DNA of 64,000 nucleotides from positions 64,001-128,000 of the forward strand of contig CAVRAY010000001.1 of assembly GCA_963719225.1 (NCBI GenBank). The letters are read 5' to 3'. This document shows positions 53,479-61,215 of this stretch, one piece after another. The notes beneath the pieces were generated by a model. The model had not been told where the DNA came from, searched no databases, and saw only the letters and a program-made list of their open reading frames with translations. The first letter of the stretch is position 1, and the number at the start of each line of letters is the position of its first letter. The position numbers and the translations under genes were made by a program. This stretch comes from Thermoanaerobaculia bacterium. GTDB lineage: Bacteria > Acidobacteriota > Thermoanaerobaculia > UBA5066.

Positions 53479-53895
53479 TCAGCCCACGATACGGAAGCCC
53501 GCTGCGGCGAAGTGAGAATCAAACGTGAAGGCGACGCGGATTCGCGCCTTCGACATGAGCACGAAACTCGTCGCGTCCACGGCCGATAACTTGTGAAGAT
53601 CTCGTCTCTGGAAATAGCGGAAGGCTCTCGTTAGGTCTTCTTCTAAGCACTCGAGAACTCTGAGACGTGGCATCTCGCCCACCGCGTCCTTCCAGGCGAG
53701 CGCAACGTCCCGGGTGGCGTTGCGGTCGAGGAAGGTGAAAGTCTCGAGAACGACGGGTACCGACGTGTGGAGACGGGCGCCGGAGCCCTGGATCTCCTCC
53801 CACGCCTCGACGGCACGGTCGTGAAGCGGATCTCGCGAGAGCGCCAGAGCGATCCAGGCACCGGTGTCGACGAAGACGCCTTCGCCGGACCGCAT
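53479..53895 (-). CDS. vapC: VapC-type PIN domain toxin
   Basis: VFVDTGAWIAL, VVLET, LSAVDATSF, FTFDSHF. Confidence 0.88.
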   Translation of the reverse strand: MRSGEGVFVDTGAWIALALSRDPLHDRAVEAWEEIQGSGARLHTSVPVVLETFTFLDRNATRDVALAWKDAVGEMPRLRVLECLEEDLTRAFRYFQRRDLHKLSAVDATSFVLMSKARIRVAFTFDSHFAAAGFRIVG

Positions 53896-54104
53896 CAGGA
53901 CTCGTCGTAGATGGAATCGTGCTCGGTCGAGGTGCGTCGCGGAACCCCGTTCCAGATGGAGACGGGGCCGCGGGGCGCGGGACGAAGCCATGTCTGGCGG
54001 ACGGCTTCGCGAACGAGATGCGCGACGCTCTTCCGCGACCTCTTCGCGGCCCGATGCAGGGCCGAGAGCTCTTCTTTGCGAAGGTAGACCTGCGTCTTCA
54101 CCAT
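53895..54104 (-). CDS. CopG/RHH family antitoxin
   Basis: KTQVYL..SVAHLVREAV..STEHDSIY; overlaps toxin start. Confidence 0.82.
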   Translation of the reverse strand: MVKTQVYLRKEELSALHRAAKRSRKSVAHLVREAVRQTWLRPAPRGPVSIWNGVPRRTSTEHDSIYDES

Positions 54105-54108
54105 GGAG

Positions 54109-54135
54109 GTGTCATTATTCAGTAGAGAGTGACAC
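54109..54135. promoter_or_regulatory. Putative RHH antitoxin operator
   Basis: IR GTGTCA-N15-TGACAC immediately upstream of antitoxin ATG. Confidence 0.5.
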
Positions 54136-54229
54136 ATATCAAGCGAGCCGCCCGAAGTTCGGTGGGGCAGGCTGCTCCGACGTTCGTCCGAAATCTTCGC
54201 GATTTCCGATCGTCAAGGAAGAGACGAAC

Positions 54230-54492: not shown

Positions 54493-54536
54493 CGACAATA
54501 ATGTTTCCTCCATCTCAAAAGTCTACCTTTTTGTAG
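54493..54536. promoter_or_regulatory. Paired ACA-N4-TGT sites (putative enhancer) upstream of amtB
   Basis: CGACAATAATGTTT and CTACCTTTTTGTAG, 30 bp apart. Confidence 0.55.
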
Positions 54537-54625
54537 CTCAGGAGACCGGCCATGCTGCTCGGTCGGCGAACGTCTAGCCCCGCGCCTGGAACCACTTCCG
54601 CTCCTGCCGGGGGAAAAGCACGCGG

Positions 54626-54641
54626 CGGCACGCACCGTGCG
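54626..54641 (+). promoter_or_regulatory. sigma54 promoter of amtB
   Basis: CGGCACGCACCGTGCG (GG-N10-GC), followed by GGAGG SD and ATG 54669. Confidence 0.65.
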
Positions 54642-54668
54642 AAAGGCGGCCCAACGGAGGGTGACTGT

Positions 54669-56264
54669 ATGACGAAAAAGAGGCTGATCTATTTTCTCGC
54701 TCTGTCGGGACTCGTCCTCGTGTCGTGGGCGGTTCTCGCGGATGCGACCGGCGACAAGACGGGCGGAATCGCGAACGTCCCCGCTCAGGTCCCTGGCAAG
54801 CCGACGCTCGAAGAGATCGGTGCGGCCGTCGGCCAGACGCGCGTTTCTCTGAATTTCGTCTGGACGCTCGTCGCCGGCTTCCTCGTCATGTTCATGCAGG
54901 CGGGCTTCGCGCTCGCGGAGACCGGCTTCACACGGGCGCGGAACGCTGCCCACACGATGATGATGAACTTCATGGTCTACGCCCTCGGGATCCTGGGGTT
55001 CTGGGTGTGCGGGTTCGCGCTGCAGATGGGCGGATCCGGAGCGCCGATGGGAGCCGCCCTGAGCGTTCCGGAGACGATGACGAAGCTCATCGGGCCATCC
55101 ATCGGCGGAAACGTGTGGGGACTCTTCGGCGGCACGGGGTTCTTCCTCTCGGGCGTGTCCTACGACGTCTCCGCGTTCGCCATCTTTCTCTTCCAGATGG
55201 TCTTCATGGACACCGCGCTGACGATCCCGACCGGCTCGATGGCCGAGCGGTGGAAGCTCTCGTCCTTCGTCGTCTACGGGATCGTCGTGTCGGCCGTGGT
55301 CTACCCCCTCTTCGCCTGCTGGGCCTGGGGCGGCGGCTGGCTGTCCACGCTCGGAAAGTACGTGGGCCTGGGGCACGGGTACGTCGACTTCGCGGGGTCC
55401 GGCGTCGTGCATTTGACCGGCGGCGTGATGGCGCTGGTCGGCGCGGTCGTCCTCGGTCCGCGCATCGGCAAGTACGTGAAAGGAGAGGCGCAGGCGATTC
55501 CGGGCCACAACCTCCCGATGGCCGTCCTCGGATGCTTCATCCTGGCCTTCGGCTGGTTCGGCTTCAACGCGGGCTCGACGCTCGCGGGGACCGACCTGAG
55601 AATCTCCATCGTCGCGGTGAACACGATGCTCGCCTCGGCGTCGGGGGCGCTCGTCGCGTTTCTCTACACGTGGAGGAAGTTCGGCCGGCCCGACCTTTCG
55701 ATGGCCGTCAACGGCATGCTCGCGGGCCTCGTGGCGATCACGGCACCCTGCGCCTTCGTGAACGCGCCAATTGCGGTTCTCATCGGCGCGGTGTCCGGCG
55801 TCCTCGTGGTCGCGGCCGCGCTCTTCATCGAGAACAGGTTGAAGATCGACGACCCGGTGGGCGCGATCGCCGTCCACGGAGTCAACGGCGCGTGGGGCCT
55901 CGTCGCGCTGGGCCTCTTCGCGGACGGGACCTACGGCGGCGGCCTGAACGGCGGCCCGGCGGCCGGCGTCGCGGGCCTTTTCTACGGAGATCCGAAACAG
56001 CTCGTGGCGCAGGTCGTCGGAATCGGCGCGAACCTTCTCTGGGTGGGTGGCTCGAGCTTCGCCCTCTTCAAGATCCTCGACCTGACGCTCGGCATGCGCG
56101 TGAGGCCGGAGCAGGAGATGCAGGGCCTGGACTTCAACGAAGTTTCGGCGCCCGCTTATCCCGGCGAAGGCTCGCCCGTCCATTTCCCCGTCTTCGCGAG
56201 CGTGCCCGCGAAGGTCACGTCTCCGCTGCTCGTGGCGCAGACCTCGCCGGCCGGCGGCAAGTGA
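54669..56264 (+). CDS. amtB: Ammonium transporter
   Basis: FMQAGF, AER, DFAGSGVVH, GWFGFNAGS, NGMLAGLVAITA, DDPVGAIAVHG. Confidence 0.96.
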   Translation: MTKKRLIYFLALSGLVLVSWAVLADATGDKTGGIANVPAQVPGKPTLEEIGAAVGQTRVSLNFVWTLVAGFLVMFMQAGFALAETGFTRARNAAHTMMMNFMVYALGILGFWVCGFALQMGGSGAPMGAALSVPETMTKLIGPSIGGNVWGLFGGTGFFLSGVSYDVSAFAIFLFQMVFMDTALTIPTGSMAERWKLSSFVVYGIVVSAVVYPLFACWAWGGGWLSTLGKYVGLGHGYVDFAGSGVVHLTGGVMALVGAVVLGPRIGKYVKGEAQAIPGHNLPMAVLGCFILAFGWFGFNAGSTLAGTDLRISIVAVNTMLASASGALVAFLYTWRKFGRPDLSMAVNGMLAGLVAITAPCAFVNAPIAVLIGAVSGVLVVAAALFIENRLKIDDPVGAIAVHGVNGAWGLVALGLFADGTYGGGLNGGPAAGVAGLFYGDPKQLVAQVVGIGANLLWVGGSSFALFKILDLTLGMRVRPEQEMQGLDFNEVSAPAYPGEGSPVHFPVFASVPAKVTSPLLVAQTSPAGGK

Positions 56265-56279
56265 GAGGAGCGACGATCC

Positions 56280-56645
56280 ATGAAAATGATCACCGCGATC
56301 ATCCGCCCGGAAAAGCTGGACGACGTGAAGGCCGCCCTCTTTGCGGCCGAGGTCGAGGGACTCACGATCACGCGGGTCTCGGGCCACGGAGGAGAGAAGA
56401 CGGTCCTCGAGAGCTACCGCGGGCACCCGCTCGTCTACGAGTTCCACGACAAGGTCCGGCTCGACATCGGCGTCTCGGAGCCGTTCGTCGACGTGACCAT
56501 CGAGGCGATCGTCAACGCGGGCAAGACCGGCCAGGTCGGTGACGGAAAAATCTTCGTCATGCCCGTCGAGAGGGTCGTGAGGATCAGGACGGGCGAGCTG
56601 GACCGGGACGCGGTCACGCCCGTCCAGATGCTCCAGAAGAAGTAG
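56280..56645 (+). CDS. glnK: P-II family nitrogen regulator
   Basis: AIIRPEKL, YRG, TGQVGDGKIF, RIRTGE; adjacent to amtB. Confidence 0.93.
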   Translation: MKMITAIIRPEKLDDVKAALFAAEVEGLTITRVSGHGGEKTVLESYRGHPLVYEFHDKVRLDIGVSEPFVDVTIEAIVNAGKTGQVGDGKIFVMPVERVVRIRTGELDRDAVTPVQMLQKK

Positions 56646-56723
56646 CCGCGCCCACTCGAATATACGAGAAACGAGGCAGGGCTTCTCCTCGCGAGGAGCC
56701 CTCCGTGAAAGGAGTTCCCTTCG

Positions 56724-57899
56724 ATGACCCGACTTCGCCGGGCCCGCCCTCTGTGTTGCTTCCGCCTCGACACGCTCGCGTTCGCCGTGACGGCGGCGCT
56801 CCTGGCCGCGCGACCGGCGCCCGGCCAGCCGGCCGCAACACCGGCACCCTCGTCCGCCCCTGCGCCGTCCGCCATCAAGCCCTGGTACGAGGAGATCGCC
56901 GTCAACGGCCTCGTCTCCGCGAGCTACTCCTACAACTTCAATCGTCCGGACTCCGGGACGAACCAGCTTCGGGTCTTCGACTTCGACGACAACACGTTCA
57001 AGGTCGATGTCGCCGAGATCGTCCTCCAGAAAGCCGTCGGGAAACCGGGCGAGGCGGGGTTTCGCGTCGACCTGGCGGCCGGCTCGTCGATCCCGCGCGT
57101 CTCGTCCTCGTTCGGCCTCCTTCAGGGGCAGGACGTCGACCTCCAGCAGGCGTTCGTGAGCTGGATCGCGCCGCTCGGAAGCGGCCTCCGACTCGACGCG
57201 GGTAAATTCGTCACGCACCTCGGGTACGAGGTGATCGAGGGATACGACGGCGCCAACGACAACGCGAGCCGCTCTTTTCTCTTCGGCTTCGCGATCCCGT
57301 TCGCACACACCGGTCTGAAGGCGTCCTATACGTTCAGCGACCAGCTCGCCGGAATGTTCGAGATCTGCAACGGCTGGGACGTCGCGCGGGACAACAACAC
57401 CTCGAAGAGCGTCGGCCTGCAGCTCACCTGGACGCCGACGAAGGCCGTGACGATCTACGGAAACTTCATGACGGGTCCCGAACGGGCGAACGTCAACTCC
57501 GATCCCCGGAGCATCTTCAACGTCGTGGCTCAATGGAAGATCACCGACCTGACCGTCTTCGCGCTCGACGCCGTCTATGGCAGCGAGAAAAAGGCGGTGA
57601 CGCCGGGCGAGACCGCGTCGTGGTCCGGAATCGCCGGTTACGCGCGTCTCGGCGTCAGCGGCGTCTTTGCGGTCTGCCTCAGGGCCGAGTTCTTCAACGA
57701 CGCGGACGGAGCGCGGACGGGCACGCCGCAGAAGGTCAAGGAAATCACCGTCACCCCCGAGTTCAAGGTGTCGTCCCACCTGACCTTCCGGGGAGATCTG
57801 CGCGTCGACTGGTCCGACGCCGACGTTTTCGGAAAGACCGACGGCGCCTTCAAGGGCAGCCAGCCGACGGTCCTCCTGAACGGCATCTACGCGTTCTAA
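56724..57899 (+). CDS. Outer-membrane beta-barrel porin
   Basis: Signal peptide, YSYNFNRP, GKFVTHLGYE, PFAHTG, NGWD, terminal YAF. Confidence 0.8.
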   Translation: MTRLRRARPLCCFRLDTLAFAVTAALLAARPAPGQPAATPAPSSAPAPSAIKPWYEEIAVNGLVSASYSYNFNRPDSGTNQLRVFDFDDNTFKVDVAEIVLQKAVGKPGEAGFRVDLAAGSSIPRVSSSFGLLQGQDVDLQQAFVSWIAPLGSGLRLDAGKFVTHLGYEVIEGYDGANDNASRSFLFGFAIPFAHTGLKASYTFSDQLAGMFEICNGWDVARDNNTSKSVGLQLTWTPTKAVTIYGNFMTGPERANVNSDPRSIFNVVAQWKITDLTVFALDAVYGSEKKAVTPGETASWSGIAGYARLGVSGVFAVCLRAEFFNDADGARTGTPQKVKEITVTPEFKVSSHLTFRGDLRVDWSDADVFGKTDGAFKGSQPTVLLNGIYAF

Positions 57900-57929
57900 T
57901 GGGACGGAGAAGTCCGCTTCAGACGAGCT

Positions 57930-57974
57930 CGACATTTTTGTTTAAAGGAGCCTTCGGTTCCGACATTCCTGTAG
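57930..57974. promoter_or_regulatory. Second pair of ACA-N4-TGT sites upstream of regulator gene
   Basis: CGACATTTTTGTTT and CGACATTCCTGTAG, 31 bp apart. Confidence 0.55.
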
Positions 57975-57984
57975 GATCCCCGGA

Positions 57985-59541
57985 ATGCCGAGGAGCCGTC
58001 CCGATCCGCCCGGAAATCTGCGCGAGCTCCCGGCCCTCCTGGAGCTCTCGCAGATGCTCGGATCCGCGCGGGGCTTCCGTGCCGCGCTGGACGGTGCTCT
58101 CGCCATTCTGCGCGAGAGCTACGGGGGAAGCGTCGTCACCGCCGCGCTCGTCGACGAGGCGACCGGCGAGCTGAAGCTCGAAGCCTCCGCGGGACTTCCC
58201 GCCGGACGGCGGCACCTGCCGAAGCTCCGCCCGGGCGAGGGGGTGACGGGCCGCGTCGTGGCGAGCGGAAAGGCGATCGTCGTTCCGCAGGTGACGCGCG
58301 AGCCGCTTCTCAGGATGCCTAACGAGGTTCTTCCCGCCTCGGCCGCAGCACGGCGCGAGCTGAGCTTCGTGTCCGTTCCCCTCGTCGTGGAAGGCTGGAC
58401 GGTCGGCGCGCTGGGGCTCGCGCTGCCCTACGAACCGGAACGCGACTTCGCGCGGACCACGTCGTTTCTCAAGGTCGTGTCCTCGCTTCTCGGACAGGCG
58501 ATGCACGTGGATCGGCTCATCGAAGGGGAGCGCGAACACCTTCTCGACGAGAACCTCAAGCTCAAGCGCGAGCTGAAAGGCCGATACGACCTCAAGAACA
58601 TCGTCGGCCACAGCCGCCCGATGGAGGAGCTCTACGAGCAGGTCGTCCAGGCGGCCCCGCGCGATACGACCGTCCTCATCCGCGGCGAGTCGGGAAGCGG
58701 CAAGGAGCTCGTCGCGCACGCTCTCCACTACAACTCCCCGCGCGCGGGCAAACCGTTCGTGAGGGTCAGCTGTGCCGCTCTTCCGGAAAGCCTGATCGAG
58801 TCGGAACTGTTCGGCTACGAGCCGGGCGCCTTCACGGACGCGCGGATCCAGAAGAAAGGGCGCTTCGAGCTCGCCGACAAGGGGACGCTCTTCCTGGACG
58901 AGGTGGGAGACCTTTCCGCCGCGACGCAGGTGAAGCTCCTGCGCGTCCTGCAGGAGCGGGAGTTCGAGAGGCTCGGCGGCACGCATCCGGTTTCCGTCGA
59001 CATCCGCCTCGTGGCTGCGACGAACCGCGACCTCGAAGCCGCGATGTCCAAGGGAAAATTCCGCGAGGACCTCTTCTACCGCCTCAACGTGTTCACGATC
59101 TTCCTGCCGCCCCTGCGCGACCGGCGCCCGGACATCCCGCTTCTCGCGGACCACTTCGTCGAGAAGTACGCGACACGGCACCGCAAGGACGTGAGGCGCA
59201 TCTCGACGCCGGCGATCGACGTCCTCATGAGCTATCACTGGCCGGGGAACGTCCGTGAGCTGGAGAACTGCATCGAGCGGGCCGTCCTCGTGTGTGACGG
59301 CGGCGTCCTCCACGCCCATCACCTCCCCCCGACGCTGCAGACCGCCGAGGTTTCCGGAACGCTCCCGCGCCAGTCGCTCGGGGCGGCGGTCGAGGCGTAC
59401 GAGAAGGACCTGCTCCTCGACAGCCTGAAGATCGCGCGCGGAAACCGGGCGAAGGCGGCGCGCCTTCTGCAGACGACCGAGCGCATCTTCGGCTACCGCC
59501 TCAAGCGGTACGGGATCGAGGCGGACCGCTTCCGGCCCTGA
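57985..59541 (+). CDS. NifA-like GAF-AAA+-Fis sigma54 activator
   Basis: GAF (GEGVTGRV), GESGSGKE, ESELFG, GAFTDA, FLDEVG, WPGNVRELEN, GNRAKAARLL. Confidence 0.92.
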   Translation: MPRSRPDPPGNLRELPALLELSQMLGSARGFRAALDGALAILRESYGGSVVTAALVDEATGELKLEASAGLPAGRRHLPKLRPGEGVTGRVVASGKAIVVPQVTREPLLRMPNEVLPASAAARRELSFVSVPLVVEGWTVGALGLALPYEPERDFARTTSFLKVVSSLLGQAMHVDRLIEGEREHLLDENLKLKRELKGRYDLKNIVGHSRPMEELYEQVVQAAPRDTTVLIRGESGSGKELVAHALHYNSPRAGKPFVRVSCAALPESLIESELFGYEPGAFTDARIQKKGRFELADKGTLFLDEVGDLSAATQVKLLRVLQEREFERLGGTHPVSVDIRLVAATNRDLEAAMSKGKFREDLFYRLNVFTIFLPPLRDRRPDIPLLADHFVEKYATRHRKDVRRISTPAIDVLMSYHWPGNVRELENCIERAVLVCDGGVLHAHHLPPTLQTAEVSGTLPRQSLGAAVEAYEKDLLLDSLKIARGNRAKAARLLQTTERIFGYRLKRYGIEADRFRP

Positions 59542-59547
59542 GAGTTC

Positions 59548-61215
59548 CTACGCGAGCTTCTGGTAGAAGTCGTTTCCCTTGTCGTCCACGAGGATGAACG
59601 CGGGGAAGTCGACGACGTCGATCGCCCACACCGCTTCCATTCCGAGCTCCGGAAACTCCACGACTTCCACCTTCTTGATGTTCTCGTCGGCCAGGAGCGC
59701 GGCCGGGCCGCCCGGCGAGCCGAGGTAGAAGCCGCCGTGCTTCTTGCACGCCTCGGTCACCTTCGGGCTGCGGTTGCCCTTCGCGATCATGACCATCGAG
59801 CCGCCCTTCGACTGGAAGAGATCGACGTACGAGTCCATGCGGCCGGCGGTCGTCGGCCCGAAGGAGCCCGACGCCTTCCCCTTCGGTTTCTTCGCGGGGC
59901 CGGCGTAATAGACCGGATGGTCCTTGAAGTACTGCGGCAGATCGGCGCCGGAGTCGAGGCGCTCCTTGAGCTTCGCGTGCGCGATATCGCGCGCGACGAC
60001 GAGCCTCCCCGTGAGAGCGAGCGGCGTCGAGACGGGATGCTTCGAGAGCTCGGCGAGGATCTCCGGCATCGGCTTGTTCAGGTCGACCCTCACGAGGCCC
60101 GCGTGCTCCTTTGCTTCCGTGCGAACGGGAAGGAGCGCTTCGGGGTGGCGCTCGAGCTCCTCGAGCCAGAGGCCGTTCTCGTCGATCTTCGCGAGAACGT
60201 TGCGGTCGGCCGAGCACGAGACGCCCATACCCACGGGGCAGGATGCGCCGTGCCGCGGCAGTCGGATGACCCGGATGTCGTGCGCGAAGTACTTGCCGCC
60301 GAACTGCGCCCCGAAGCCGAGCTTCTGCGCCTTCTCGAGCAGCCTTTTCTCCAGCCCCGGGTCGCGGAACGCGCGGCCGGAGGCATCGCCCGTCGTCGGC
60401 AGCGAGTCGTAATACCCGGTGGATGCGAGCTTCACCGTCTTCATGCAGGCTTCCGCCGACGTACCGCCGACGACGATCGCGATGTGGTACGGAGGGCACG
60501 CCGCCGTGCCGAGGCTCTTCATCTTCTCGACGAGGAACGCTTCGAGGCTGGCGGGGTTCAAGAGCGCCTTCGTCTCCTGGAAGAGCGCGCTCTTGTTCGC
60601 CGAGCCGCCGCCCTTCGCGACGAAGAGGAGCTTGTATTCCATGCCCGGCGTCGCGAAGATGTCGATCTGCGCGGGCAGGTTGTTGCCCGTGTTGACCTCG
60701 TCGTACATCGTGAGCGCGGCCGTCTGCGAATAGCGGAGGTTCTCCTCGGTGTAGGTCTTCCAGATGCCTTTCGAGATGAGGGCGGCGTCGTCCGCTCCCG
60801 TCCAGACCTGCTGGCCCTTCCAGCCCACGACCGTCGCCGTGCCCGTGTCCTGGCAGAACGGCAGCTCGAACTTCGCCGAGACCGCCGCGTTGCGCAGCAG
60901 CGTCGTCGCCATGAAGCGGTCGTTCGGAGAGGCCTCGGGGTCCTTCAGGATGGACGCGACCTGCTGCTGGTGCTTCGGCCGCAGAAGGAACGACACGTCG
61001 CGCATCGCTTCGTACGCGAGGAGCGAGAGCGCGCTCGGGTCCACGACGAGGACCGGCTTGCCGCCGAACCTGCCCTTCTTGACGAATTTCTTCGAGACGA
61101 GCCGGTACGACGTCGTGTCCTCACCCCTCTGGAAGGGCTTCGAATAGGCGAAGTCGCTCTTCGCGGATGCCTTCTTCGGACTTTGTTTCTTCGCGAGCTG
61201 CTTCTTCGCCGGCAT
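59548..61215 (-). CDS. fumA: Class I (Fe-S) fumarate hydratase
   Basis: [36 protein letters not shown]. Confidence 0.95.

Follow-up and report, generated by a model that had tools for sequence, protein, structure and literature searches.

A predicted DVU1949-type sigma54 activator and its paired ACA-N4-TGT palindromes at an ammonium transporter locus of a Thermoanaerobaculia bacterium

In a 64,000-nucleotide stretch of a Thermoanaerobaculia genome (the window; C1:64001-128000 of the 4.75-Mb genome G000, two contigs, 68% GC, 97% complete), four genes that all run in the same direction encode an ammonium transporter, a PII protein, a BBP2 beta-barrel porin, and a GAF-AAA+-Fis activator (Table 1). 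The activator, which by its sequence is of the DVU1949 type, very likely binds a pair of ACA-W4-TGT palindromes, and under ammonium shortage it is predicted to switch on amtB-glnK-porin through the sigma54 promoter of this operon. The locus is a real, strongly conserved regulatory module that works like NtrC at glnK-amtB, and its regulator is neither NifA nor NtrC. Regulator idea and motif are already in print as predictions, and the locus provides a further clear-cut case of this predicted switch. Kazakov et al (2015; PMC4641369) predicted, by comparison only, that DVU1949 of Desulfovibrio is a one-component activator of nine operons, including the ammonium transporter operon DVU1231-33, the glutamine synthetase DVU1258, and its own operon, with sites of an ACA-W4-TGT core and T/A flanks. 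Thus, the palindrome, put forward as new in a preliminary description of the window, has the same core as that predicted in 2015 for DVU1949 and for DVUA0143, the nif activator of pDV, whose sites (CKACA-W4-TGTMG) were likewise derived by comparison only.

Table 1. Features of the ammonium transporter locus, in window coordinates
Feature	Position	Strand	Basis and remarks
Upstream activator site 1, amtB pair: CGACA-ATAA-TGTTT	54493..54506	.	20.0 bits, genome's best single site; kept in relatives
Upstream activator site 2, amtB pair: CTACC-TTTT-TGTAG	54523..54536	.	14.4 bits; 30 bp after site 1; kept in relatives
Predicted sigma54 -24/-12 promoter of amtB	54625..54641	+	GG 54627-28, GC 54639-40; sequence and conservation; predicted start near 54652
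amtB-type ammonium transporter, 531 aa	54669..56264	+	TIGR00836 391.5 bits against a cut-off of 343.3; PF00909
PII (GlnK), Thermus type: Leu51, Gly38, Glu39	56280..56645	+	PF00543, alignment
GC-rich stem-loop without U tail, glnK-porin spacer	56678..56702	+	RNA fold
Outer-membrane beta-barrel porin (BBP2), start codon uncertain	56724..57899	+	PF07642 E 1e-79
Operator site 1 before activator gene: CGACA-TTTT-TGTTT	57930..57943	.	19.0 bits
Operator site 2 before activator gene: CGACA-TTCC-TGTAG	57961..57974	.	16.1 bits; 31 bp after site 1
GAF-AAA+-Fis sigma54 activator, DVU1949 type, 518 aa	57985..59541	+	GAF_2, Sigma54_activat, HTH_8 (Pfam)

Both pairs lie where the preliminary description had located them, with 30 and 31 bp between their sites, and its two-site pattern returned only these two places in a scan of the whole genome. 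Three of the four ACA-N4-TGT sites are intact, while the second amtB site is imperfect because it reads ACC, not ACA. Scored with a matrix of 82 sites from the homologue loci L004-L080, from which the window and its three closest relatives were excluded, the window pairs reach 35.1 and 34.4 bits and rank first and second genome-wide, whereas the next pair reaches 21.3 bits. From the GG of the sigma54 element, the centres of the two amtB sites are 127.5 and 97.5 bp upstream, in agreement with the earlier figure of about 90-130 bp, and this element, which had been proposed before amtB, is conserved together with the sites. The genome contains rpoN, a GGAGG ribosome site precedes the amtB ATG at 54669, and both pore histidines are kept in the AmtB alignment. 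RNA structure as the cause of the activator-proximal sites was rejected, as the predicted fold is no better than that of shuffles (z -0.36).

The motif was followed through the best 80 of 520 homologous loci found (52-95% protein identity; 1.03 Mb in total), the closest of which belong to Thermoanaerobaculia, phylum Acidobacteriota. Conservation at orthologous loci, on which the preliminary description had staked the motif in advance, was observed: pair, spacing, and -24/-12 element are conserved among relatives, while the intervening spacers vary. The amtB promoter aligns in six of seven relatives, and L141 has its own element at a different distance. Strict ACA-N4-TGT occurs 208 times in the 80 loci, compared with 35-101 occurrences for each alternative spacer length between 0 and 15. 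Of the 55 site pairs within 120 bp, 45 are spaced 29-31 bp apart; the consensus is (C)(G/T)ACA-WWWW-TGT(C/A)(G). TGT-N20-ACA was rejected as the unit: The centre keeps its length of 4 bp, whereas the spacing of neighbouring sites ranges between 29 and 32 here and more widely in Desulfovibrio, which favours ACA-N4-TGT. In 42/72 loci, a pair is found in the 300 bp before the activator gene, and in 22/77 just downstream of it, as against 0/1440 shuffles and 1-3/72 for four other spacings, in a partly circular count. Moreover, the recognition helix is near-constant among the homologues that share the motif.

Palindrome pair and activator also go together across the phylum, in 201 evenly drawn Acidobacteriota genomes, among which, as among the loci, kin are not independent. 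With seven candidates scored per genome for the activator and for NtrC, the activator profile separates 38 genomes at 569 bits or more from the next at 459. The strict pair pattern is present in 19/38 activator genomes and in 10/163 others, and a reversed control pattern in 6/201. Dispersed hairpin repeats that contain two ACA-N4-TGT palindromes 29-31 bp apart occur in G073, G171, and G030.

The activator has the domains of a sigma54 enhancer-binding protein (PF00158, E 1e-70; HTH_8; GAF) and the loop GAFTDA, a listed functional loop variant (PMC4641369); a fold search with it returned only general sigma54 AAA+ domains. NtrC identity was rejected, as the N-terminus is a GAF and not a receiver domain and the protein scores 320 bits against a cut-off of 558.6 for the NtrC model (TIGR01818). 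No NtrC over the cut-off was found among 25 matches in the window's genome or, with seven candidates scored for each, in the 201 sampled genomes. In a full-length tree (quick search without bootstrap), proteins of Acidobacteriota, of the Myxococcota sample, and of DVU1949 context form one group of 25 of the 41 rows with 96% SH-aLRT, while NifA and the pDV nif activator fall outside. The Myxococcota sample, centred on a Myxococcaceae genome, contains the activator group in 18/121 cases at E 1e-145 or better.

Orthology with DVU1949 runs via stand-ins defined by iorA-iorB context, GAFTGA loop, and helix-turn-helix (HTH) region. P0319, one such protein, is 44.6% identical to the window activator; its relatives follow a hypothetical gene, iorA, and iorB and have the GAFTGA loop (L168 by hidden Markov model, nine loci by inspection), the same context and loop given for DVU1949 (PMC4641369). 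The Desulfovibrio-type locus L168 also has a site at the activator's own transcription unit. As compared by inspection with the published sites, the window shares with the DVU1949 system a one-component sigma54 activator, the ACA-W4-TGT core, and the own-operon site, as well as the amt operon and glutamine synthetase as targets, the latter (glnA) in relatives of the window and not in its genome. In contrast, flanks are mostly T/A in Desulfovibrio and C/G in the window, the sites published for Desulfovibrio often stand alone or at distances of 30-53 bp and those described here lie a tight 29-31 bp apart, and the nine operons compare with two transcription units in the window's genome. The gene follows iorAB in Desulfovibrio and amtB-glnK-porin in the window. 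Furthermore, D. vulgaris has DVU3220 and a PII uridylyltransferase at amt (PMC3333781), whereas GlnD was not found in the window's genome.

The closest published match to the window sites is CKACA-W4-TGTMG of DVUA0143, and a site of this type lies upstream of nifH on pDV. Unlike the window activator, DVUA0143 carries an HTH of the canonical NifA type, is not placed within the group by the tree, and serves nif genes, and its sites are often 13-23 bp apart (PMC4641369). Upstream of nifH on pDV (L090:15711-16535), ACA-W4-TGT sites stand 18 bp apart despite the canonical HTH of the plasmid activator; one may speculate that DVU1949 rather than DVUA0143 binds them. In the DNA-binding-domain table of PMC4641369 (Additional file 2), the first three labels seem shifted: Row "DVU1949" is identical in every residue to the HTH of the activator on plasmid pDV (L085:1977-3524), and row "DVU0569" nearly matches P0319.

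The layout at amtB resembles that of NtrB/NtrC, which act at glnK-amtB and glnA-ntrBC, and of Geobacter GnfL/GnfM, with tandem enhancers about 100 bp above the sigma54 promoter of amt-PII and glnA and likely repression at overlapping sites, whereas the window activator has neither receiver domain nor kinase. A GnfM-type regulator was rejected, as its TGC-N11-GCA sites are unrelated to the window motif and it has a receiver domain (PMC2995071). Aquifex aeolicus Nlh1 and Nlh2 (PDB 4g3k, 4g3w, 4g3v) are likewise sigma54 activators under the control of a GAF domain, with a presumed role in nitrogen assimilation rather than fixation (PMC9866876).

Among relatives, the pairs precede genes for amt, PII, glnD, and glutamine synthetase (glnA types I and III), and further a nitrate-type MFS carrier with a molybdopterin reductase, a urea-type binding protein, amino-acid permeases, and three kinds of porin. 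A few precede genes of no evident nitrogen role (GAF-phosphorylase, TonB receptor, HemD). Around the activator gene itself, amt is a neighbour in 25 and PII in 26 of the 80 loci, and a BBP2 porin adjoins it in 13. Much as the preliminary description had supposed, the palindrome pair, sigma54 promoters of genes for nitrogen assimilation, and sites at the activator's own gene all accompany a non-nif GAF-AAA+-Fis activator. A sigma54-like element, by a hand-made score, follows 32 of the 63 pairs before nitrogen genes at 65-118 bp (random windows, 59/3000), whereas none follows the 54 pairs within 100 bp of an activator start. The nitrogen-gene layout is that of an enhancer, and the activator-proximal layout is most simply that of an operator. 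At L058:1429-4122, a strong pair with a sigma54-like element precedes the gene of a GAF-domain carbohydrate phosphorylase, which may point to a link with carbon storage.

By the matrix scan, the regulon is minimal in the window's genome and comprises the amtB operon and the activator gene only, so that its description as self-contained is correct for this genome. The scan for further targets proposed at the time, glnA included, found at glnA one weak unpaired palindrome (11.5 bits) and no pair; a second PII-amt operon (C1:543722-545349) has neither motif nor sigma54 consensus in its 500 bp upstream. Consequently, the suggestion that the activator substitutes for NtrBC holds for many relatives, with their glnA, glnD, nitrate, and urea targets, and fits the window's genome only in part. 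A glutamine-synthetase-family gene (C1:146760-147764, L082) is broken across three frames by a sequencing error or as a pseudogene.

From how sigma54 activators work, each ACA-W4-TGT palindrome would be bound by one activator dimer, and two dimers three helical turns apart on one DNA face would assemble the AAA+ ring. The ring would contact sigma54 about 100 bp away and open the amtB-glnK-porin promoter when ammonium is scarce. As the second pair covers the activator start region without a sigma54 promoter, the activator probably represses its own gene, a role suggested by position. Read-through from the amtB promoter could raise the activator level, as is comparably the case in the enteric glnA-ntrBC operon, and no terminator was called between porin and activator. 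The 91-nt glnK-porin spacer with its stem-loop folds with z -2.35 (equally stable shuffles, 6/200), and terminator calling gave no terminator at the stem-loop.

The signal is the least certain part of the proposed mechanism. The solved PII chains closest to GlnK of the window are 23eo and 1ufl, the latter presumably Thermus GlnK, with E of about 1e-45 compared with 1e-29 for other PII. Its T-loop has Leu51 instead of Tyr51 and thus departs from uridylylatable GlnB/GlnK. Both PII proteins of the genome (56280-56645; C1:543722-544080) lack Tyr51, while PII beside glnD in relatives keep it; GlnD had no match in the window's genome, and PF08335 none in two genomes of the same genus. The signal would therefore run without uridylylation, and we infer from established PII biochemistry that any PII control here must use ATP, ADP, and 2-oxoglutarate. 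The nearest solved GAF domain to that of the activator is Aquifex Nlh1 (E 1e-13), followed by NifA. In the structure model, a long helix joins GAF to AAA+ (residues 155-201), and a signalling helix is likewise described for Nlh1 (PMC9866876). For Azospirillum NifA, PII binding to the GAF domain depends on ATP and 2-oxoglutarate (PMC3854208). We tentatively favour control of the GAF domain by the co-encoded PII, in response to ATP and 2-oxoglutarate, over small-ligand sensing by this domain.

Several observations speak against a DVU1949-type activator acting throughout by enhancer and operator pairs. The strict pattern misses 19 of the 38 activator genomes, including that of the window, and six strict matches in G073 resemble hairpin repeats rather than sites. 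Six matches from five of the ten activator-free genomes with the pattern were inspected: With the full matrix, five of them obtain low scores and the sixth, in G135, a high one. The strong G135 pairs precede non-nitrogen genes, and no activator was found among all 43 candidates scored (320 contigs). Pairs are rarer in the Myxococcota sample, where several group members have none nearby. Before nitrogen genes, 31 of the 63 pairs have no good sigma54 element within 135 bp, although some of these are distal second pairs, and several amt and porin genes of Vicinamibacteria-type loci lack one as well. Pair-to-promoter distances are weakly phased (R 0.36-0.39 for periods 10-12). At activator genes, a -10-like hexamer over site 2 is unenriched (11/40 versus 5/22), so a repression geometry of this kind is not general. 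The full-length tree is the quick search mentioned above, and an AAA+-only tree left deep nodes open. Finally, the counts of activator-flanking pairs and of sigma54 elements are circular in part, since some of the loci counted had also supplied training sites for the matrix.

That the protein is a true or leftover NifA and the palindromes arise by chance is barely conceivable. The nifA model (TIGR01817) is its best NCBIfam match, many homologues are labelled "Nif-specific regulatory protein" by JGI, and one distant group member in a genome of the Myxococcota sample (L152, G294 C542:10000-24000) stands beside and divergent from nifHDK, so the activator group may include nif activators. With proteobacterial NifA, the window activator shares the GAF-AAA+-Fis layout and a possible PII input via GAF, and it is 36-40% identical to four proteins annotated as NifA. 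However, it scores 474.4 bits, below the nifA cut-off of 528.85, stands apart in the tree, has a recognition helix and HTH different from those of the four NifA proteins, and has no nif targets; the motif, moreover, is far beyond chance. NifA binds TGT-N10-ACA, which is missing from both upstream regions and unenriched in the homologue loci. The lack of nif genes, noted earlier for the surroundings, extends to the genome, where only short NifH-family fragments occur and no nitrogenase component (PF00148) was found, nor was one in 37/37 other activator-bearing Acidobacteriota. For this genome, NifA identity is thus refuted, barring nif genes in the unassembled 3%. The sites could also be genuine and bound by another sigma54 activator of the genome or by a response regulator with a similar palindrome, which we hold to be quite improbable. 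The genome has more than 20 further AAA+ activators, the response regulator DVU3220 shifted the D. vulgaris amt promoter in an electrophoretic mobility shift assay (PMC3333781), ACA-N4-TGT wording occurs in the accessible literature on Cop, Gra, and Bce-type two-component systems, and G135 has pairs with no activator found. Against another binder, the pair flanks the activator gene far more often than in shuffles, tracks the activator across genomes, and goes with a near-constant recognition helix.

Instead of a repressing operator, the pair before the activator gene may be a surplus enhancer or may act positively on a promoter of the sigma70 type. We regard this as unlikely: The gene upstream in the window runs in the same direction, the pair has no sigma54 element after it, and site 2 ends 10 bp before the activator ATG, overlapped by a TAGGAT hexamer (57972-57977) that lies 7 nt before this ATG and recurs in L001-L003, L008, and L012. 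For a role other than repression speak the loci in which activator and target are transcribed divergently and one of the pairs can act on the target instead (L025, L058, L095), as well as the missing enrichment when a sigma70 -10 overlap with a leaderless start was sought at activator genes in general. Closer to a real contender, though short of probable, is a GAF domain that senses a small molecule (glutamine, 2-oxoglutarate, or other) with the same activator and sites, while PII merely gates AmtB; the DNA-side model is untouched by it. In its favour, Nlh1 is described as activated by an unknown ligand in its pocket, probably for nitrogen assimilation (PMC9866876), the activator adjoins two quite different PII types, and in 54 of the 80 loci the retrieved sequence contains no PII. 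For control of the GAF domain by PII, in turn, there is the precedent of NifA (PMC3854208), and amt-PII and glnD are the commonest neighbours and targets of the activator.

The palindrome-associated group, whose proteins widely bear the NifA label in databases, may represent a fourth major type of master regulator for nitrogen in bacteria, in addition to NtrBC, GlnR/TnrA, and NtcA, and in many Acidobacteriota the principal one. Here, it would form a two-protein circuit without kinase or GlnD, in which a non-uridylylatable PII directly switches a GAF activator that drives PII, transporter, porin, and itself; we offer this as a possibility that we consider rather doubtful. Acidobacteriota are among the most abundant soil bacteria, and our literature search returned nothing on how they control ammonium uptake. 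It also found no experimental test of a DVU1949-type regulator, with most subscription papers beyond its coverage. Since one protein, four sites, and one promoter lie within 5 kb, the 2015 Desulfovibrio prediction becomes directly testable at this locus. Its value lies in this compact arrangement, in the wide occurrence of the module among Acidobacteriota, and in showing that the NifA label misleads: "Nif-specific regulatory protein" in metagenomes often marks ammonium scavenging, not nitrogen fixation.

Some further observations concern other loci and neighbouring DNA. In the Vicinamibacteria-type loci L064, L066, L067, L071, L103, and L104, no good sigma54 element follows the pairs before amt and porin genes, which may point to a different promoter logic in this lineage. 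Triple and double arrays of strong sites lie near parA/parB and a beta-helix gene at L110 (G135 C1:56800-61900). Outside the window, C1 has a T/G-rich low-complexity stretch at about 57900-61100, perhaps an assembly artefact in this 68% GC genome. Divergent from amtB, on the minus strand at 53479-54137, a PIN-domain gene and a small upstream open reading frame likely form a VapBC-type pair, and the sole sigma70-like promoter called in the region (54142-54114) lies at this pair.

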